From: a virus
Lineage: Duplodnaviria > Heunggongvirae > Uroviricota > Caudoviricetes
Length of the DNA stretch: 64,000 nucleotides
IMG/VR virus record: IMGVR_UViG_3300017917_001353
Location: 38,545-102,544 of that record
Direction: 5' to 3' (one strand)
A program made the position numbers and the translations under genes. This document shows, piece after piece, positions 15,616 through 50,759 of the stretch. The stretch's first letter is position 1. The number at the start of each line of letters is the position of its first letter. The notes under the pieces were generated by a model that made no database searches, was not told the DNA's origin, and saw only the letters and a list, made by a program, of their open reading frames with translations.

Positions 15616-15974
15616 TGAGATTATTTGAAGTAGACCTTGGGTCTGCTAGAGATGTCCTAGCAGTCATGCAAGGCCTAGCAGACAAAGAAGGGCAGGAAAG
15701 TAAACTGCCCTTTCCCGTTGTGATGAATATTCTAAAACCTTTTGGTTTAGGAATTAGTACACCGGACGCTCTTATTGCTCTTAAGAATAGTGTAGATCCA
15801 AACGGCGATGTTATCAAAGATGTGGCCGATGACGGCACAGTTACACTGAATACCAAAGTTCAGGGCGCCGAAACTAGCCAAGATCAAATGCAACAACAAC
15901 CGGGCGGCGGTTCTGCTTCTAGCGTAGATCAAATGGCTTCTGCCAATTCTAAAAATCTTTCCCCTAAAATTTGA
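15615..15974 (+). CDS. hypothetical protein
   Basis: 119 aa coupled ORF. Confidence 0.3.
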   Translation: MRLFEVDLGSARDVLAVMQGLADKEGQESKLPFPVVMNILKPFGLGISTPDALIALKNSVDPNGDVIKDVADDGTVTLNTKVQGAETSQDQMQQQPGGGSASSVDQMASANSKNLSPKI

Positions 15975-16732
15975 CATTTAAGAATCAGGTAGTTATAATT
16001 AAGTTTATGACTATCTATTCCCCACCTCCGTTTATTGAACGGTTCCAATATAAAAACTGCGTACAGGTAAATGACCCTGTAACTAGAAAACGTGTTTACC
16101 AAACTCCGGACGGGGAAACACTACCTAGTGTAACTACAATCCTAAGTTCAACTAAGGACATGACTGCCTTAAACGAATGGAGGAAGAGGATTGGTGAAGA
16201 CAAGGCCAACCAAATTACACGAGAAGCGGCAGGCGTTGGTACAGCCATGCACAGCAATCTGGAAAGATTTATTGCAGGCCTGCAACGTCAGCCTGGCAAT
16301 AATCCAGTTCATGTACAGGCCAACAAAATGGCTGACATTATTATTGAAAATGGCCTAAAGGATGTTAACGAAGTATGGGCCATGGAACAGAGCTTATACT
16401 TTCCCGGGCTATATTCGGGTACAACTGACCTAGTAGGTGTTTACAAAGGCAATCCTAGTGTAATGGATTATAAGCAGACTAACAAACCTAAAAAAGAAGA
16501 ATGGATCGATGACTACAAAGTTCAATTGGTAGCATACATCATGGCACATAATGAAGTGTATGGAACAACAATCAATGAAGGCCATGTATTCATGTGTAGT
16601 AGAGATTTACAATATCAACAATTCGATCTTTGGCCGGACGAGTTCGAGCATTGGCAGAACAAATGGTTGGATAAGGTTCAAGAATATTACACCACAGGTA
16701 TGCAAGGTCTTAAGCAAATCCTAACACAATGA
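15971..16732 (+). CDS. PD-(D/E)XK-type nuclease (YqaJ/Cas4-like fold)
   Basis: TDLVGVYKGNPSVMDYKQT gives a D..(D/E).K catalytic arrangement. 253 aa. Confidence 0.4.
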   Translation: MTFKNQVVIIKFMTIYSPPPFIERFQYKNCVQVNDPVTRKRVYQTPDGETLPSVTTILSSTKDMTALNEWRKRIGEDKANQITREAAGVGTAMHSNLERFIAGLQRQPGNNPVHVQANKMADIIIENGLKDVNEVWAMEQSLYFPGLYSGTTDLVGVYKGNPSVMDYKQTNKPKKEEWIDDYKVQLVAYIMAHNEVYGTTINEGHVFMCSRDLQYQQFDLWPDEFEHWQNKWLDKVQEYYTTGMQGLKQILTQ

Positions 16733-30409: not shown

Positions 30410-31374
30410 TGAAAAAATTCCTTCACCATGCGGGCATGACGCCCATGATGACCACCCCTACTCATATGTATAATGTGTACGATAGAACACAGTCAATGCT
30501 CTATCAGCCACAGATACATTGTATATCTCCTATAGGCAAAGTAGTAGACAAACCTAAAACAATAGAAGAACTATGCTACGAAAGCGCACAGAGGATTATT
30601 TCTAAAGCAGAGTACAATTTTATTTTTGTAACATGGAGCGGAGGTATTGACTCTACTCTTGTGCTATCCGAGTTTTTGAAATATGCACCACATGATCAAA
30701 TCGTCGTAATGATGGACAAGCATAGTATTCAAGAATATCCTAGTTATTATGAGAAGTTTATTAAGAACAAACTAAGAACTACTCATATGGACTTCTATAC
30801 TGATCGTCCGCTAGAAAAAGCAATACAAACAGGCATTGTAGTTACAGGACACTTACTAGATCCAGTGTTCGGATCTAACAACTACTCTGCTATGTCTGAA
30901 CAAAAACTAAGAGAGCCAGTAGAAAGTTTCTTAAAACCGTTAAACGGTTATTCGAGAGAACTTTACCAAAAATTAATAAATGCTTGCCCTAGACCTTTAG
31001 AAAATGTTAAAGATTTATTCTGGTGGTTAGATTATACGTTAAACTATCAGAGCGAAGAACTAATGTGGCTACTAGAAGTCAAAGATATGATTCTGGGCAA
31101 AAACCTTTTTCACTTCGGCATGGGCCCCGATTGGAATAACTATGCTGTAACAACTCCAATTGAAGGCAAGTGGGAAGGATACGATTTTAGAAAATTTAAA
31201 CAGCCTTTGAAAGATCAAATTTATAAATTTACTAAAGATGATTTTTATACAAAGGAAAAAATTAAAATGCCGTCCTGGAGACATTATAGAACAGACGAGC
31301 AGCGATACAGTAAAAAAGCAATCTGGATCGATACAGAATGGAGAAGAGGATGGCAGTGGCAAAATCAAATTTAG
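30409..31374 (+). CDS. PP-loop ATP pyrophosphatase superfamily protein (AsnB-C/PAPS-reductase/QueC-like adenylating enzyme)
   Basis: FIFVTWSGGIDSTLVLSEF carries the SGGxDS PP-loop. 321 aa. Ends with TAG. Confidence 0.55.
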   Translation: MKKFLHHAGMTPMMTTPTHMYNVYDRTQSMLYQPQIHCISPIGKVVDKPKTIEELCYESAQRIISKAEYNFIFVTWSGGIDSTLVLSEFLKYAPHDQIVVMMDKHSIQEYPSYYEKFIKNKLRTTHMDFYTDRPLEKAIQTGIVVTGHLLDPVFGSNNYSAMSEQKLREPVESFLKPLNGYSRELYQKLINACPRPLENVKDLFWWLDYTLNYQSEELMWLLEVKDMILGKNLFHFGMGPDWNNYAVTTPIEGKWEGYDFRKFKQPLKDQIYKFTKDDFYTKEKIKMPSWRHYRTDEQRYSKKAIWIDTEWRRGWQWQNQI

Positions 31375-31811
31375 CAGTAGAAAAAGATAAGTTCGGAGTT
31401 GACGTAGAAATAAAATACTGCCAACTCTTAGGCGGTACTCCGAACATGACATTCTTTCTGTCTCAATTTTTAAAATTAATTCAGAATGGACATGCACATC
31501 CCCATATGGCAGGAAACAACAGGTCAAAGGCCGTGTATGCAACTATTGATAATAGAATAGTTGGTCAAATCACATTTGATATTTTAGATGATTATGCAAA
31601 AACAACGTGGATCGTCTTGAGCTCAGTAGATGAAGAATTTAGGGGCCGAGGCATTTACACAATGTTGCATAAACATTTAGAAACCCTAATGCTCGAGTTG
31701 GGGTCTAGAAAATTGGCAAGTCATGTACACATAGATAATACAGTACGTCAAGCCAGTGCTAGAAAAGTGGGCTTGAAGCCTGTTTATTACAGAATGGAAA
31801 AAGACTTATGA
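31338..31811 (+). CDS. GNAT-family N-acyl/acetyltransferase
   Basis: [15 protein letters not shown] matches GNAT motif A (R/Q-x-x-G-x-G/A). 157 aa. Overlaps the previous gene by 37 nt. Confidence 0.55.
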
Positions 31812-32047
31812 GTGAACAAACTTTAGAACAACAGATTATTAAAATTGTCGCAGAACAACTGGGAATTCCGGAAGAGTCTGTGAAATTAGATTCGGCCTTC
31901 GTAGCCGACCTTGGTGCAGATTCGTTAGACACAGTAGAATTAGTAATGAGCTTAGAAGATCATTTCAATATTGAAATCCCTGACGAAGAAGCAGAAAAAA
32001 TTACAACTCCAAGGAAAGCAATTGAGTATATTGAACAGTTGAAATAA
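31808..32047 (+). CDS. acpP: acyl carrier protein
   Basis: [34 protein letters not shown] is near-identical to the AcpP core, with Ser in DSL as the phosphopantetheine site. Confidence 0.85.
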
Positions 32048-32060
32048 CAAAGGAGTAGAA

Positions 32061-32519
32061 ATGGCGTTAAAATTTCAATGTGAACCGGTCCTAAAAGTTA
32101 AGCCCGAAATGGAACCTATGTTAGAAGACCATTATCAGGAATTAACTTTACACAAAGACAAAATTAAACTTGCACCCGATTGGGAACTTTATGACAAAAT
32201 GGAGAAGGCAGGAACTTTCTATCTTCTCACAGCACGTGACTCTGACACTGAAGAATTGTTAGGTTATAGTGCATGGTTCGTAAAGCCGCATATTCATTAT
32301 AAAGAAACCATTGTTGCAGCCAACGATGTTCTTTTCTTAAGAAAAGACCAGCGAACCGGCATGACGGGCATCAAATTAATTAAATATTCAGAGCAAGAGA
32401 TGAAAAAGTATGCCCATAAAATCACATGGCACGTAAAAGGCGAGCCCGATTTTAGACCAATTCTTCACAGACTGGGCTACGCAGATGAAGACGTTATTGT
32501 AGGAAAAATGTTAGTATGA
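32061..32519 (+). CDS. GNAT-fold acyltransferase-like protein
   Basis: ...ANDVLFLRKDQRTGMTGIKLI... resembles the GNAT acyl-CoA/ACP binding strand-turn. 152 aa. Confidence 0.35.
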   Translation: MALKFQCEPVLKVKPEMEPMLEDHYQELTLHKDKIKLAPDWELYDKMEKAGTFYLLTARDSDTEELLGYSAWFVKPHIHYKETIVAANDVLFLRKDQRTGMTGIKLIKYSEQEMKKYAHKITWHVKGEPDFRPILHRLGYADEDVIVGKMLV

Positions 32520-33172
32520 CGACTAGACCAAGTTACGAGTTTTATAGCAAATTGCATTTTAGGCCCGAGCAACTAGAAGCAATTAAAACGCTATACAAAA
32601 AATACTTCGAACAATTTCTTCCGGAAAAGTACGACGGTACAGCAACTTCTGTACTATGGTACAGAGGTGCTAAGTGGGTCGCGGGCGAAGGCCACGATAA
32701 AAATCACAAAGTAAAAGGCGGGGTTGTTGAAGAAGGTAACGACGATCCATTGTGGAAAGAACACTTTGGGGATCTTCTCCCCTACATGGAACCGGCTGCG
32801 GTTATTACACAGTTACCGCCAGGCGAAACTATGCATCCTCACGTTGACAGATCATGGCGTCCTAAGGCAATTTACTTTCCTATTTCAGGCTGTTCTGATT
32901 TGTGTGTATCTGAATACTACGATCTACCTATTAATCAGGGTGATAAGAATAGACAGAGTCAAACTCAGTTTCCTCCTCCCATTTTTTCGTATGCAATCAA
33001 TACACATGCATATCTAACCAATACTCACGAATGGCACGGTGTAAGAAATTTAAGCGATCAAACACGCACTGCATTTGGTTGGAATTTTAGACAAGGGCTT
33101 AACCTTTCTATGGCTCAGTGCAGAGACATTTTGTTAAAGTTAGGTTACATCAGAGAAGACGACGAAAGATAA
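32516..33172 (+). CDS. cupin-type 2OG-Fe(II) oxygenase-like hydroxylase (paralog family A)
   Basis: HPHVD (HxD) ... HEWHGV (distal His). DPLWKEHFG..LLPYM...YFPI.GC...SEYYDLP is shared with the next gene. Confidence 0.45.
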   Translation: MTTRPSYEFYSKLHFRPEQLEAIKTLYKKYFEQFLPEKYDGTATSVLWYRGAKWVAGEGHDKNHKVKGGVVEEGNDDPLWKEHFGDLLPYMEPAAVITQLPPGETMHPHVDRSWRPKAIYFPISGCSDLCVSEYYDLPINQGDKNRQSQTQFPPPIFSYAINTHAYLTNTHEWHGVRNLSDQTRTAFGWNFRQGLNLSMAQCRDILLKLGYIREDDER

Positions 33173-33817
33173 TTGAGTATGAAAGAAGCCAGGGATCTTT
33201 TTACAAAGTGTTCCTTTACTGAGGCACAGCTCGATGCCATGAGAGAACTATATAGAAAATGGTTCGCTCCCCGGGTCCCTGAACTTTATAACGGAACAGC
33301 AACAGTTGCTATCTGGTATCCAAATGGTAAGTGGGAACAAACCAAGGGCAAAGATGTAAATCATTCCAATTACGGATTTGTTGACCCTGAAATAGGGAAA
33401 GACCCCCTTTGGAAAGAGCACTTCGGGCCCCTTCTACCCTATATGGCAAAAGATGCTGTTATCACTAAATTACCTCCTAATTCTGTAATGCATCCACACA
33501 TTGATAGGTCTTGGAGAGGGCAGGCAATTTACTTTCCTATTGAAGGGTGTACAACTGAATGTTATTCCGAATATTACGATCTACCTAAAGCAGACTCTCC
33601 GAACAGACAGAGTCAGGTAGAGTTTCCGCCAGCAATTTATCAATATGCCATTCATGACAATGCTTATCTAACAAATGTTCACGAGTGGCACGGTGTAAGA
33701 AATACCGCAAACGTTACAAGGATAGCATTTGGTTGGAATTTTAATCCAATAGCAAGGTGGCCCTACGTAAGATGTAGGGATAAGATGATAGAATTAGGAT
33801 ATATTAATGAGCAATAA
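33173..33817 (+). CDS. cupin-type 2OG-Fe(II) oxygenase-like hydroxylase (paralog family A, tandem duplicate)
   Basis: About 55% identical to 32516..33172 (HPHID ... HEWHGVRN). Confidence 0.45.
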   Translation: MSMKEARDLFTKCSFTEAQLDAMRELYRKWFAPRVPELYNGTATVAIWYPNGKWEQTKGKDVNHSNYGFVDPEIGKDPLWKEHFGPLLPYMAKDAVITKLPPNSVMHPHIDRSWRGQAIYFPIEGCTTECYSEYYDLPKADSPNRQSQVEFPPAIYQYAIHDNAYLTNVHEWHGVRNTANVTRIAFGWNFNPIARWPYVRCRDKMIELGYINEQ

Positions 33818-34400
33818 TTTTTGTTATTACCGTTTAAAAATTAAATTAGACAACTTCCTAAATCCAAAATGGAAGTTACCCAAACCCACTGGCCTTTATG
33901 GGATATGGAATCCAATGGCCGAAGAAGTTTTCAGTGGTGCTTGGCTTGAATACATGAAGTCTATAGATATTCCTATCTATAACGCAATGGTTTTTTATAG
34001 AGGCCCCGGAGCAAGTACGAAAGAAGTGCATGTTGACATCAGCAAGACAGATCCTTTAGAATTAACTAATTACGGATTCAATTGGTGTATCGGCGGTACT
34101 GAAAGCAGTATGGTCTGGTATGAGATCCCCGGAGACGGAACGGTCAAAGAGGAAGATGTAATTTGGACTGCTGCTAAAACTCCTTATGTTGCTTGGAAGT
34201 ACGAAGAAGTTAAAGAAATTGAAAGAGCGAATATTGGGCGAGAGATGACACTGGTTAAAACTGATCTCCCACATTCTATACAAATGGGCAAAGAGCCTAG
34301 ATGGTGTATCAGTGCAAGAAGTTCTTCCCTTAACAACCTTAAATGGGACGAAATTCTCGATCATCTTCGTGCAAAAGATTTACTGGTAGAAAGAACATGA
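33807..34400 (+). CDS. cupin-type oxygenase-like protein (paralog family B)
   Basis: NPKWKLPKPTG, VFYRGPGASTKEVHVDIS (HxD), PHSIQMGKEPRWCISARS, LLVER. Confidence 0.4.
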   Translation: MSNNFCYYRLKIKLDNFLNPKWKLPKPTGLYGIWNPMAEEVFSGAWLEYMKSIDIPIYNAMVFYRGPGASTKEVHVDISKTDPLELTNYGFNWCIGGTESSMVWYEIPGDGTVKEEDVIWTAAKTPYVAWKYEEVKEIERANIGREMTLVKTDLPHSIQMGKEPRWCISARSSSLNNLKWDEILDHLRAKDLLVERT

Positions 34401-34984
34401 CCATAGAAAAATGCTGGTATGAATTAAACATACCTTGCGAAAATGCGTTGAACCCTAACTGGAAGTTTCCTGATGTTGAAGGGAAAGACTTTGGTGTTTG
34501 GGATTATAAAGCGCATCAGATTTTTAATCCTAGGTGGGTCTATGATGTTGCACAAAAGGGCCTGCTAATCGCCGAGGCATTAGTATTCTACAGAGGTCCT
34601 AATCATAATACTGATAATGCACACTTAGATATACACAGAAGTCATCCTGTTAAAATTTCCACCTTTGGTTTAAATTTAATCATAGGCGGCCAAGACGCAC
34701 ATATGACCTGGTATAAAACTCCTAGAATTACTAGAAAACCCACACCCGGTGGCGCCGGAACTGTATATTATAATTGGCCTGTTAGTTCTCTAACAGAAAT
34801 TGATAGACATATTCTTGCAGAAAATAAAGTAACAATGGTGCGTGTAGGAATCCCACATACAATTATTATGGGAGATCAACCTCGCTGGTGTATTTCTGCT
34901 AGATGTGCAACTGTAGAAAATATGTACTGGCCGCAGATTACTGAATGGATGAGAAAACGAGATTTATTAGTTGAAAGAGATTAA
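34397..34984 (+). CDS. cupin-type oxygenase-like protein (paralog family B, tandem duplicate)
   Basis: NPNWKFPDVEG, VFYRGPNHNTDNAHLDIH, PHTIIMGDQPRWCISAR, LLVER. Start at the ATGA overlap. Confidence 0.4.
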   Translation: MTIEKCWYELNIPCENALNPNWKFPDVEGKDFGVWDYKAHQIFNPRWVYDVAQKGLLIAEALVFYRGPNHNTDNAHLDIHRSHPVKISTFGLNLIIGGQDAHMTWYKTPRITRKPTPGGAGTVYYNWPVSSLTEIDRHILAENKVTMVRVGIPHTIIMGDQPRWCISARCATVENMYWPQITEWMRKRDLLVERD

Positions 34985-34986
34985 CA

Positions 34987-35547
34987 ATGTTTGAAAAGAT
35001 TAATTTTAAGTTAAAGGATGATATTGATTTTGAAAGACTTAAAGGTTCAATCGTAACCTCTTATGGTAGAGAACCTAGGCCTAGACTAACTTATTATAGA
35101 TTAGGCGATCCTGAATATTTTAGATCTCTTTTACCTGACGAATTGCCCTGGGGAAATATCCCTCCTTTACAAGTACAAGTTGCTGAAATTGTAGATAGTG
35201 TCGGCGGACATTTATTACCTCATATCGATCATAATATTAGTGCCTGTGCAAATTATTATGTAACTACGGGTAATTCTAAAACGCACTTTTATAACCTCAA
35301 AGAAGGCGGTGGAGGATTTGTATATCCTGGACGACAGTCTGCTAACATCTTTACATTAGATCAGGTTGATAAGGTAACAGATTTTACAGCCGCAGACGGT
35401 GATATGTTTCTATTAGACGTGTCATCAATACACAGTGTCGAAACTCCCCAACCAGGAATCAGACGATTCATCACGTGGCAATGGGTAGGTGTTCCATTTG
35501 AAGAAGTGAGAAAATCTTTAAAGCAGAACCAAACTTCTACAGTTTAA
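34987..35547 (+). CDS. AspH-like/cupin 2OG-Fe(II) oxygenase-like protein
   Basis: GGHLLPHIDHN (HxD) ... DGDMFLLDVSSIHSVETP...RRFITWQW. Confidence 0.4.
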   Translation: MFEKINFKLKDDIDFERLKGSIVTSYGREPRPRLTYYRLGDPEYFRSLLPDELPWGNIPPLQVQVAEIVDSVGGHLLPHIDHNISACANYYVTTGNSKTHFYNLKEGGGGFVYPGRQSANIFTLDQVDKVTDFTAADGDMFLLDVSSIHSVETPQPGIRRFITWQWVGVPFEEVRKSLKQNQTSTV

Positions 35548-35550
35548 AAT

Positions 35551-36867
35551 ATGCCTTCTACATACTGTAAAACCGTGTGGAACGGTCTTCACATTCAGCC
35601 TGATGGTTACATCAGGCTTTGTTCTCTCGGAGCCAACTCTGTGCCCGAACTCGATATGCAACGTGCTAGAGATAGAGATGGAAATCTCATGAACATTGCA
35701 ACACACGAAGTTAAGGATATGATTAACAGCGATAAGCATCGGGAAGTTCGTAGGCTAAATGTAGAAAAGCCCGGCGAGTGGAGCCCGCACTGTGTTTGCT
35801 GTGAAAATAGAGAAAAAATTGTTCGAAGAAATGATGACATCGATACCAGCAGAAGACAAGCATTGATGTTCCATGTTAGATCTCCAGGTCTGAATGAGTT
35901 CACGCTAAAAGATAACATGGAGAAAGATGGTTCCGTAAACTGGGGGCCCAGTAGTCTAGATATTCGTTTCGGTAATCTCTGCAATCAAAAATGTATTATG
36001 TGTGGTCCGCACTTTAGTAACCTATGGTACGAAGAATGGGCCGACTTTTATAAAACAGACAAGATAGGATTCATCAATGAAAAAATTCAGATTGTTCGAG
36101 ATCCTGTAAAGAACAAGTTTATAGATCCGGAAGAATTTAAGTGGCACGAAAGTCCGCAATGGTGGGCAAAGTTTGAAGAAATGTGTCCTACTCTTTCTCA
36201 TATCTATATTACAGGCGGCGAACCTATGGTAACTCCGTCTCACGATGTAATGTTAGATAAGTTGATTGCTAACGGTTATGCTAAAAAGATTACATTAGAA
36301 TACGATACAAATCTTAGCGCCATTAACAACAAGATATTAGAACGTTGGCCTAACTTCAAGAAAGTAATTGTACGTGCAAGTATGGACGGCACTGGAGATC
36401 AGTACGAGTTAATTAGATTTGGCGGCAACTGGAACAAGTTTGTCGAGAATGTTAAGCGTCTCAAGGCAGCGACCGCAGAATTTCCGCACATTAAATTTGA
36501 AAGTGTTTCTTCTTGTGTACAGTTATCAACACTCTACGAAATTGAAAAGTCTGAAAAATTCTGTGAAGAAATGGATGTTCCTTTTCATATAAGATTCTTA
36601 GAAGGCCCTGTATTCTTTTCTCTAAATCATATTCCACGAAAATATAAGTTAGAACTAATAGAATACTATAAAACATTATCTGGAACAAAGCCTCCGTTGA
36701 TTATAAAATATCTAGAAAATAACTTAGACTATCCTATTAGAGAAGATTCGATGCAGCGGTGCATAGAGTTCATGGACTTCCTAGATACTACTCGTAATAC
36801 AAATTGGAAAAAAGTTCTTCCAGAGATGTATGCTCTATTAAAGAGAATGGTTGACAACCCAAAGTAA
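35551..36867 (+). CDS. radical SAM enzyme with N-terminal Cys-rich extension
   Basis: FGNLCNQKCIMCG (Cx3Cx2C) and YITGGEPMV (GGE SAM motif). Extra N-terminal cysteines (C..C, CVCC). Confidence 0.65.
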   Translation: MPSTYCKTVWNGLHIQPDGYIRLCSLGANSVPELDMQRARDRDGNLMNIATHEVKDMINSDKHREVRRLNVEKPGEWSPHCVCCENREKIVRRNDDIDTSRRQALMFHVRSPGLNEFTLKDNMEKDGSVNWGPSSLDIRFGNLCNQKCIMCGPHFSNLWYEEWADFYKTDKIGFINEKIQIVRDPVKNKFIDPEEFKWHESPQWWAKFEEMCPTLSHIYITGGEPMVTPSHDVMLDKLIANGYAKKITLEYDTNLSAINNKILERWPNFKKVIVRASMDGTGDQYELIRFGGNWNKFVENVKRLKAATAEFPHIKFESVSSCVQLSTLYEIEKSEKFCEEMDVPFHIRFLEGPVFFSLNHIPRKYKLELIEYYKTLSGTKPPLIIKYLENNLDYPIREDSMQRCIEFMDFLDTTRNTNWKKVLPEMYALLKRMVDNPK

Positions 36868-36885: not shown

Positions 36886-37479
36886 ATGATAAATTATCAA
36901 GACTTCCTTAGTTGGGTAGATGTGGCAAAATTTGCCACAGCCTGTAACAACATCAGCAATGCACCTGGTACTCAAATTCTAAATGAGCACAGTAACCGTA
37001 TGCTCAAAGAAAAGTTTATCTTAGGAGCATTGGCAATCTGCAACCACAAGAAAAATATCACTTGGGTTGATACGATTGACTACGATTTAATTTTTACAGC
37101 GTGGAATGATGCTACTGTGGAAGTTAAGACTGGCGACGGTCCTATGTTTACCGAAAAGAAGGGCGACCTTAAAGAGCATGTGAGTGTTAAACTAAAAAAC
37201 ATTTACGAAAGTAAGGCTAACACACGCACTACATTGGACAAAACATTTGATCATTTGATGATTATCCAAAATAGCGGAACATTTGCTATCGGATTCGTTC
37301 CGTTTGATGTCGTGAGTCAGCATCTGGTGCAGTTAACTGATGGATGGAAAGCCAAGATTCCTGCCGATAAAGTTACTATTGTATATCAGCAGGATATGCG
37401 ACAACTACCTGTAGACTGGACTGTCGATTTGAACCCTAGAAATTGGGTACTTGACAAACTTACTGAAGCAGGGCTATAA
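36886..37479 (+). CDS. hypothetical protein
   Basis: 197 aa. Confidence 0.3.
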   Translation: MINYQDFLSWVDVAKFATACNNISNAPGTQILNEHSNRMLKEKFILGALAICNHKKNITWVDTIDYDLIFTAWNDATVEVKTGDGPMFTEKKGDLKEHVSVKLKNIYESKANTRTTLDKTFDHLMIIQNSGTFAIGFVPFDVVSQHLVQLTDGWKAKIPADKVTIVYQQDMRQLPVDWTVDLNPRNWVLDKLTEAGL

Positions 37480-37503
37480 TAAATATAGCAAAGGAATAAT
37501 ATT

Positions 37504-37572
37504 ATGGCATATCGAGCAAAACCAAGAAGCGTTAAAGCCGCAGTTCGTAGAGTACTACGTAGAAATAAGTAA
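37504..37572 (+). CDS. very small basic peptide (22 aa)
   Basis: RBS AAAGGA. Encodes MAYRAKPRSVKAAVRRVLRRNK. Confidence 0.2.
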   Translation: MAYRAKPRSVKAAVRRVLRRNK

Positions 37573-37627
37573 TGGACGACGATCTTAAAAGATTCGGAGT
37601 TGGATTTGTTACTGTTGTAATAATCAT

Positions 37628-37969
37628 GCTACTAGTCTTGTAAGTTATTGCTGTAAGAAGCAAAGAGAAAAGTGTTCTGGACGCGGGTTCGACTCCCGCC
37701 ATCTCCACCGAAGCACATTGCGGCACTAGGAGCGCATTTAAACTTAACCTAGTGTGGCTACTTAGGCAGTGTGTTTCGTTGGGGATGTACTGGTTTCGAC
37801 AGGGCAAAGAGTAACAGAGTGGACAGCACGGTAGGCGATGACCGTAAATCAAGCAAAACAAAATAGACGCAAACGACAACGTTTACGCATTAGCAGCCTA
37901 AACACTGCTTAGGGTAACTATACCTCGTAACAGAAAATAGTAATAGGCTCTTCGGAGCCTATTTTTTTG
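37628..37969 (+). ncRNA. ssrA: tmRNA (ssrA), circularly permuted two-piece type
   Basis: Acceptor-piece 3' end GGACGCGGGTTCGACTCCCGCCATCTCCACC (T-arm plus acceptor strand plus CC, 37679-37709) lies upstream of the coding-piece 5' end GGGGATGTACTGGTTTCGACAGG (37781). The GGGGATG/CATCTCC acceptor helix has the G3:U wobble (Ala identity). Tag ORF GCA AAC GAC AAC GTT TAC GCA TTA GCA GCC TAA (37869-37901) encodes ANDNVYALAA. Terminator hairpin aggctcttcggagcct+T7 at 37945-37969. No T-arm follows the tag, so it is not a one-piece gene. The 5' boundary of the acceptor piece is approximate. Confidence 0.6.
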
Positions 37970-38017
37970 ATAAATAGTTAAACAAACGGTATCTGTTTTT
38001 ACAATAAGGAGAAAGCA

Positions 38018-42013: not shown

Positions 42014-42409
42014 ATGACTATGCATCTTGCACATCCTGCCCTAAGTCTTGGCGGCAAGAAAAAAGGTAAACAAAAGTTCCGCAATGCCGAAGAGGCTCGC
42101 AAAAGTCGCGAGCTCGATGCTTCCTGGAAAGAACTCCAAAAGAAGTGGGGTGTTGAACAAGAAGAACGCAAACGCAAACGCGGTCTGTCGGCCCAGCCTC
42201 TTATTACCCAATCCTCAGTATATCGTCGTGACACGGGTCCTCGAATCCCTAGTCTCAACGGCGGTCTCGATATGACTCCTGCGGTGCTAAAACCGGCACC
42301 AGTTTACACAGGCACCAAGATCAAAGGTATTGGTACTATGCACAAATCAAACGCTGTGCCAATCTTCAGCGATGAAGAGGCACAAGATATTGCAAGGATG
42401 CGTCGATGA
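42014..42409 (+). CDS. hypothetical basic protein
   Basis: 131 aa. Confidence 0.3.
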   Translation: MTMHLAHPALSLGGKKKGKQKFRNAEEARKSRELDASWKELQKKWGVEQEERKRKRGLSAQPLITQSSVYRRDTGPRIPSLNGGLDMTPAVLKPAPVYTGTKIKGIGTMHKSNAVPIFSDEEAQDIARMRR

Positions 42410-50686: not shown

Positions 50687-50759
50687 GCGCTAGTCCGCGT
50701 GGAGCGGCAGGAGCCTCTAAAACTCCCAACTGTGGGTTCGATTCCCATCTAGCGCACCA
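50687..50759 (+). tRNA. tRNA with anticodon CUA (amber-suppressor type), non-canonical D-arm
   Basis: Acceptor gcgctag/ctagcgc (7 bp), discriminator A, encoded CCA. T-arm gtggg-TTCGATT-cccat. Anticodon stem ggagc/actcc with a C.A closing pair and loop C-U-CUA-A-A. Only 1 nt between the acceptor and D stems. D-stem ccgc/gcgg with a 5-nt D-loop. 73 nt total. Confidence 0.6.

Follow-up and report, generated by a model that had tools for sequence, protein, structure and literature searches.

The window, a 64-kb stretch of phage DNA analysed here as a whole, very probably carries a working ssrA gene of the phage's own, circularly permuted and with the architecture of the beta-proteobacterial type. 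The 3′ tRNA half (the acceptor piece) is encoded upstream of the 5′ tRNA half and the tag (the coding piece), and the gene order runs from a sigma-70 promoter through two mini-ORFs, the acceptor piece, a 71-nt intervening hairpin and the coding piece to a terminator. An earlier reading, made from the sequence alone, had proposed a phage-borne circularly permuted two-piece tmRNA with the tag ANDNVYALAA, and had suggested running ARAGORN and the Rfam models on the locus. ARAGORN calls a permuted tmRNA (tmRNA*) with this tag at 37618-37992. The best match within the Rfam clan is RF01850 (beta_tmRNA), which aligns over the full model (1-331) with 150.9 bits (E = 2e-46), and RF04321 (tmRNA_permuted) also matches over its full length (144.5 bits, E = 2e-28). 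Both scores are far above the curated gathering scores (84 and 47, respectively), and the match of the locus is well beyond chance. The three detectors thus agree with the proposal. Our reading of the gene as functional rests on these full-length matches together with intact identity elements, covariation, and the promoter and terminator. It also rests on the lack of any integrase found, the confirmed phage junctions, the relatives in isolated T4-like phages and in 112 viral contigs, and the genuine phage ClpX.

The features of the locus, and one gene outside it, are as follows.

37451..37480, + strand: sigma-70-type promoter, TTGACA-18 nt-TATAAT, 12/12 consensus matches
37504..37643, + strand: leader with two overlapping putative mini-ORFs, from ORF reading
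37504-37572, + strand: leader ORF1, MAYRAKPRSVKAAVRRVLRRNK, with a Shine-Dalgarno-like AAGGA upstream
37572-37643, + strand: leader ORF2, MDDDLKRFGVGFVTVVIIMLLVL
37649..37709, + strand: acceptor piece, from Rfam, alignment and covariation
37649-54, + strand: P2-outer, 5′ strand
37673-79, + strand: P2a, 5′ strand
37683-99, + strand: T-arm, 5 bp, loop UUCGACU
37700-06, + strand: acceptor stem, 3′ strand, pairing with 37781-87
37707 and 37708-09, + strand: discriminator A, then CC
37710..37780, + strand: intervening segment, 71 nt, from folding and covariation
37781..37968 (end approximate), + strand: coding piece, from ARAGORN, Rfam, alignment and covariation
37781-87, + strand: acceptor stem, 5′ strand, GGGGATG (G3 = 37783)
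37788-99, + strand: D-loop analogue, GGUUUCGAC
37800-06, + strand: P2a, 3′ strand
37823-28, + strand: P2-outer, 3′ strand
37829-54, + strand: PK1 (proposed)
37869-37901, + strand: tag ORF, GCA AAC GAC AAC GTT TAC GCA TTA GCA GCC TAA, giving (A)ANDNVYALAA
37892-37909, + strand: stop-codon hairpin (helix 5), with the stop codon in its loop
37912-41, + strand: PK2, small
37942-37963, T run to 37968, + strand: terminator, 9-bp GC-containing stem and T run, starting 40 nt past the stop codon
44655..45884, + strand: phage ClpX, outside the RNA gene, Pfam zf-C4_ClpX and AAA_2

The identity elements of the tRNA-Ala-like domain are intact. The domain comprises a 7-bp acceptor stem with G3:U70, a GTTCRA-type T-loop and a discriminator A; the T-arm, 3′ acceptor strand and ACC together read GGACGCGGGTTCGACTCCCGCCATCTCCACC, ending at 37709. 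The sequence-only reading had placed the 3′ end here and the 5′ end at 37781, 71 nt away, with the two ends joined by a 7-bp stem carrying the G3:U alanine identity pair, and the sequence is as it described. The window gene lacks the last A of CCA, a G coming after ACC; 84 of 97 relatives specify the full CCA, and only 6 have ACC followed by G. A single copy of the 31-nt 3′ end is present in the window, where shuffles give an expectation of 0.

The intervening segment is predicted to prolong the acceptor stem as a long hairpin. Folding pairs 37710-21 with 37766-77 and places an apical hairpin within the segment (37724-30 with 37748-54). Every relative, folded singly, gives the same fold from an unrelated sequence: it is the shape, not the sequence, that is kept. 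The segment is presumed to be excised. A 66-nt hairpin from this region (window 37711-37776) also recurs outside any tmRNA at 97-98.5% identity, with copies in the contigs L121 (4550-4615), L126 (1263-1328), L119, L122, L123 and L125. In metagenome contigs, it immediately precedes tRNA-Cys in an array of phage tRNA genes, where other flanks lengthen its stem, and it is common to permuted tmRNAs with differing coding pieces and tags. The 66-nt hairpin thus has the behaviour of a mobile spacer or of a hairpin used in processing.

The coding piece specifies a tag of familiar type. We confirm the resume codon GCA at 37869 and the tag frame that had been read from it, which closes with a hydrophobic ALAA-type end and the stop codon TAA. 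The tag equals the E. coli tag ANDENYALAA at 8 of 10 positions. Directly before the resume codon the window has UAGAC, the corresponding motif in E. coli tmRNA being UAGUC. The LAA end of the tag is the part recognised by ClpX, and the N, D and Y positions are used by SspB in E. coli; the window tag retains both. A hairpin enclosing the resume codon (37868-87) was considered but not adopted, its inner pairs being only 43% paired and its outer pairs confounded by coding constraints. In the central part of P2, seven positions of the window are non-canonical relative to the RF01850 model, and a purine-rich internal loop is found there.

The consensus promoter lies some distance from the gene. Transcription of the tmRNA precursor likely begins there, and no comparable promoter was found nearer to the tmRNA than 37451-80. 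With the nearest promoter approximately 165 nt upstream, the window RNA would need a 5′ cut, or would retain its leader. In at least 21 relatives, the acceptor piece is immediately preceded by a near-consensus promoter that ends about 9 nt ahead of it, while another group resembles the window in having a promoter 137-170 nt upstream and small unrelated ORFs in the leader. Unrelated small ORFs between promoter and acceptor piece are seen in L005, L011, L029, L047, L070, L072 and L102, and that of L102 resembles a PqqA precursor peptide (MAWTTPSAQDMRFGFEITMYIANR). At the other end of the gene, a terminator had been placed 43 nt after the stop codon, leaving no room for a downstream T-arm. The terminator does follow directly after the coding piece and the room is absent; only the distance differs, trivially, at a measured 40 nt.

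The structure is supported by covariation among viral relatives. A pattern scan of IMG/VR for the beta-like permuted architecture yielded 112 viral contigs, many of 140-177 kb, and ARAGORN called all extracted relatives permuted, with tags that are mostly ANDxx[F/Y]ALAA. The window was aligned with 86 distinct relatives (87 distinct sequences) on a structure specified by the analyst; the search pattern fixed many core bases, and varying positions were free. Across these 87 sequences covariation scored 0.295, a value that none of 500 shuffles reached (shuffle score 0.137), and slid controls scored 0.06-0.09. The sequence-only reading had called for a search for helices between the two pieces. 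Two were found, both with compensatory changes: P2 outer, with 95% of cells paired and 5 of 6 pairs compensatory, and P2a, with 99% of cells paired and 6 of 7 pairs compensatory. The acceptor stem and T-arm were paired in 100% of cells, with compensatory changes at free positions, and the intervening helix in 88.6%, with all 10 tested pairs compensatory. The first stem of PK2 was 97% paired, and PK1, helix 5 and the second stem of PK2 had partial support at most, in regions where the alignment is poor. A local hairpin (37648-51 with 37660-63) in place of the long-range P2 outer was rejected, as 261 of 500 shuffles reached its value.

ARAGORN also made spurious one-piece tmRNA calls with non-canonical tags at several related loci (L001 1252-1569, L051 6937-7272, L110 1392-1908 and L128 424-764). 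These calls take their T-arm from the permuted gene, run across genuine tRNA genes, and are a trap for annotators.

The window derives from a distant T4-like phage of approximately 41% G+C, with rIIA, NrdA, NrdB and tail fibres. It carries many auxiliary genes of aquatic type, namely those for PstS, NAMPT, a NadM-Nudix protein, fatty-acid desaturases, a peroxiredoxin, Asp/Asn hydroxylases and a radical-SAM/SPASM protein. No close or near-identical relative of the phage was found among 50,697 phage records (INPHARED). Just upstream of the tmRNA, a cluster at 31338-36867 encodes an acetyltransferase, an acyl-carrier-like PP-binding protein, a 2OG-Fe(II) oxygenase-like ORF and a radical-SAM/SPASM enzyme, together with tandem paralogous ORFs (32516-33172 and 33173-33817) of about 75% nucleotide identity; this is possibly a cassette for modifying peptides or metabolites. 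Two other ORFs of the window have homologues that flank the tmRNA elsewhere: a PD-(D/E)XK-like ORF (15971-16732) in 58 related viral loci (flanks of L002-L113), and a basic, uncharacterised 131-aa ORF (42014-42409) in 23 loci. In the window they lie 21 kb and 4 kb from the tmRNA, respectively. In L035, an ORF ending just upstream of the tmRNA looks by eye like the PD-(D/E)XK-like C-terminus, L035 being unconfirmed among the 58.

The gene can be fitted to the known working of two-piece tmRNAs. Work on Caulobacter by Keiler, Shapiro and Williams in 2000 is said to be the basis of what is known of them. In this gene form, a precursor is cut by tRNA-processing enzymes into two base-paired RNAs (PMC11915505). 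In the window, transcription would most likely start from 37451-80, run through a leader of about 165 nt with the two mini-ORFs, and end at 37942-68. Folding and covariation show a precursor structure in which 37700-06 pairs with 37781-87 and the intervening 71 nt form a hairpin extension. Host RNase P would cut 5′ of G37781, host 3′-processing enzymes would trim to ACC, and the CCA-adding enzyme would add the missing A; an endonuclease would probably cut near the conserved AU at 37647-48 and so detach the leader from the acceptor piece. An acceptor piece of approximately 62 nt and a coding piece of approximately 188 nt would then be held together by the acceptor stem and the two P2 helices, whose pairing the covariation shows.

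By established tmRNA biology, host AlaRS would charge this RNA via G3:U70, and host SmpB and EF-Tu would bring it to ribosomes stalled on broken mRNAs. Translation would resume at GCA 37869 and append (A)ANDNVYALAA, and the LAA C-terminus would direct the product to ClpXP, possibly with phage ClpX acting on host ClpP. The gain for a T4-like phage would be that ribosomes are kept available during the cutting of host and phage mRNAs.

The same phage encodes ClpX, as the sequence-only reading had stated. The gene lies approximately 7 kb downstream of the tmRNA, and its product matches E. coli ClpX 8e91 with E = 9e-125. It retains the zinc finger and the pore-1 GYVG, RKH (KRKHP) and IGF (RGIGF) motifs, that is, those for substrate binding and for ClpP docking (the IGF loop docks on ClpP). 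Judged by its domains and motifs, this is a genuine ClpX, and it is possibly the downstream partner of the tag. We found none of the 56 IMG/VR contigs that carry a ClpX 68-81% identical to that of the window among the 112 tmRNA contigs, most of these being fragments; the ClpX-tmRNA pairing is not a conserved module. A weak tblastn test of the 64-kb window with approximate query sequences (for SmpB and ClpP those of E. coli) gave nothing below E = 0.1 for SmpB, ClpP, SspB or a lambda-type integrase.

The window also encodes a tRNA with the anticodon CUA, an amber suppressor, at 50687-50759 (+ strand), which ARAGORN labels ‘Pyl’. It scores 34.3 bits with the Rfam tRNA model, has an encoded CCA, and is preceded by a promoter-like TTGACG...TATACA. 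TAG is the stop codon in 2 of 77 long window ORFs (TAA in 48, TGA in 27). Suppressor-driven readthrough could increase the need for trans-translation. No suppressor tRNA was found beside the tmRNA in the related loci.

Other origins of the locus are far less probable than a functional gene. The upstream fragment might be suspected to be a temperate element's attP-type copy of the 3′ end of a host ssrA, or the locus to be an assembly chimera of bacterial and phage DNA, because public contigs break within the conserved tRNA-like core, between 37656 and 37780. Yet both junctions between tmRNA and phage genes are confirmed by independent public assemblies from three samples at 96.8-100% identity. 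L035, a 169-kb viral contig, has near-identical counterparts of the acceptor piece, the intervening segment and the beginning of the coding piece, all contiguous, which argues against a chimeric join. The sequence-only reading had named an adjacent integrase and att-type repeats as the marks of an attP copy: no integrase was found in approximately 40 ORFs scanned against Pfam, and no att-type repeat of the tmRNA 3′ end anywhere in the 64-kb window. The gene is moreover complete, with complementary inter-piece helices, and we regard an attP copy or chimera as extremely improbable. Very unlikely, too, is a passenger or decaying copy, gained by horizontal transfer and no longer used. The incomplete CCA, the unpaired part of P2 and the location in a hyperplastic region rich in auxiliary genes would suit such a copy, but all essential elements are intact, and a consensus promoter and a terminator are present. 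Furthermore, compensatory changes extend across more than 80 viral sequences, and close variants persist in several samples.

It is also unlikely, if less remotely so, that the RNA is functional with a main role other than plain ribosome rescue. A phage tmRNA with its own tag and its own ClpX might redirect or speed degradation, for amino-acid recycling or host takeover; alternatively, it might compete with host tmRNA for SmpB. The bona fide ClpX 7 kb downstream points in this direction. So do the recycling idea raised for the phage Melnitz (Buchholz et al., PMC9004378) and the tmRNA of phage DS6A, which has the tRNA-like domain only, a form shown to inhibit host tmRNA (PMC4131195). Against this, the tag is of the ordinary ANDxxYALAA type with nothing special about it, and ClpX and tmRNA never share an IMG/VR contig. 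Such a role would in any case be compatible with the reading of the locus as a functional permuted ssrA gene, the two not being mutually exclusive.

The form of the gene follows phage lineages, not hosts. The sequence-only reading had taken the permuted form as a hint of the host lineage. This does not hold, as the beta-type permuted gene is also found in Stenotrophomonas and Xanthomonas phages, whose gamma-proteobacterial hosts have a one-piece tmRNA, and Melnitz carries an alpha-type gene although it infects OM43. The style of the tag (10 residues, ANDxxYALAA) is at most a loose pointer to a host among the beta- or gamma-proteobacteria.

The P2 variant of the window is common among viral sequences and near-absent from cellular genomes. 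It occurs in 42 of the 114 tmRNA sequences examined (viral loci, the contig L114 and the window itself), and has one match among 185,579 bacterial and archaeal species (one genome each), on the 12.5-kb contig L114 with its phage-like genes. This distribution suggests a phage-maintained sublineage. We therefore raise, tentatively and with more doubt than confidence, the idea that the window gene belongs to a beta-like permuted lineage kept by phages and not recently copied from hosts. Module swapping is consistent with this idea, since L035 has the acceptor piece and hairpin in common with the window but another coding piece, and the hairpin is also found in phage tRNA arrays. So is the company of a phage ClpX and an amber-suppressor tRNA; tmRNA, ClpX and suppressor could form a phage-controlled set for translation quality control. 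In detail, L035 (1808-2142) is 91.8% identical to window 37644-37824 from the acceptor piece across the intervening segment and as far as nucleotide 44 of the coding piece, and diverges beyond that point, with the tag ANDEKFRIAA; the gene is a mosaic.

In its extreme form, the phage-lineage reading would make phages the vehicles, even the birthplace, of tmRNA gene permutation. In L114, a one-piece gene and a permuted coding piece share one 3′ half. L114 (1803-2456) is DITF01000195.1, binned in the MAG UBP17 UBA6191, and is phage-like, with a homing endonuclease and a virion protein. Its one-piece tmRNA is full-length (RF00023, 136.8 bits, tag ADEDYALAA); the T-arm/acceptor half is followed by an intervening hairpin and then by another coding piece, this one of permuted type (RF04321, 108.4 bits, tag ANDDTYLLAANA). 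The two 5′ parts are dissimilar, which makes recombination at the conserved T-arm likelier than recent tandem duplication. Of the two, the first 5′ part is the better fit to the strand that precedes the T-arm (6 bp vs 4 bp). In a search for other tandems of one-piece and permuted genes, the viral loci gave only non-canonical, probably false ARAGORN calls.

This analysis contributes a clean case of a two-piece tmRNA in a phage, dissected in full, and shows the beta-like form to be widespread in large uncultivated phages, to judge by the 112 IMG/VR contigs and the 140-177 kb that many of them span. Isolated Xanthomonas phages are also carriers, with the gene unannotated or mis-annotated as protein. 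Annotation pipelines overlook permuted phage tmRNAs, assemblers break contigs at them, and phage hosts should not be inferred from the form of the tmRNA gene. More broadly, one may ask what lytic phages gain from investing in ribosome rescue and in tagging for degradation, and the pairing with ClpX bears on that question here.

Phage two-piece tmRNAs are not new, and the window gene is a further case of an already known kind. A permuted tmRNA had been held to be unusual in a lytic T4-like genome, a view contradicted by the 112 contigs found here and by the published count of Buchholz et al. (2022), who count 133 unique phage tmRNAs, of which 53 are two-piece, 50 of the 53 being from marine or aquatic phages (PMC9004378). 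Table S1 of that study gives the Stenotrophomonas phages Mendera and Moby as ‘Permuted’, and the authors describe a two-piece tmRNA in the T4-like OM43 phage Melnitz (PMC9004378). In some records of isolated T4-like phages the tmRNA is annotated as such.

Among T4-like or large lytic phages, the gene order of the window recurs in the Stenotrophomonas myophages (Menderavirus: Mendera, Moby, Marzo, IME-SM1, YB07 and others). The acceptor piece of the Stenotrophomonas and Xanthomonas phage copies is 81% identical to that of the window, and these phages have no nucleotide similarity to the window beyond the tRNA-like core. Their tags are longer than that of the window (VAANDDSYTVRIAA and similar). 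Most of these phages match beta_tmRNA, where Marzo and JGB6 score 94.6 and 94.7 bits, below the 150.9 bits of the window, whereas Rb1 and BUDD match tmRNA_permuted only (103.4 and 77.5 bits). The gene of Marzo, unlike that of the window, sits within a tRNA cluster beside nrdA. The Xanthomonas phages BUDD (L127), Rb1 (L128) and JGB6 (L129) have permuted tmRNAs that match RF04321 with 77-114 bits; in their GenBank records the tmRNA is unannotated or overlaid with ‘hypothetical protein’ CDSs.

Melnitz, the pelagimyophages and the cyanomyophages have a two-piece tmRNA too (PMC9004378). Melnitz resembles the window phage in being lytic, T4-like and aquatic, in having no integrase, and in its complete permuted ssrA, which lies behind an early promoter (PMC9004378); the questions of function that it poses are also the same. 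However, the Melnitz gene is reported to group with alphaproteobacterial tmRNAs, whereas the window gene fits best as a beta type, and the 3′ domain in Melnitz includes a predicted glutamine riboswitch (PMC9004378). No riboswitch scored above the Rfam threshold in the window.

The two-piece tmRNA of betaproteobacteria (RF01850) shares its architecture and conserved core with the window gene, as well as the terminator hairpin at the end and an ANDxxFALAA-like tag. The two-piece tmRNA of this bacterial lineage was reportedly the subject of work by Sharkady and Williams in 2004. Relative to the bacterial form, the window gene is phage-borne, has a purine-rich internal loop in place of the central P2 pairs of the model, and has a distal promoter with leader ORFs. 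The mycobacteriophages of the Bxz1 group and Bacillus phage G likewise carry ssrA in large lytic genomes, but as a one-piece gene in the standard order (PMC4131195).
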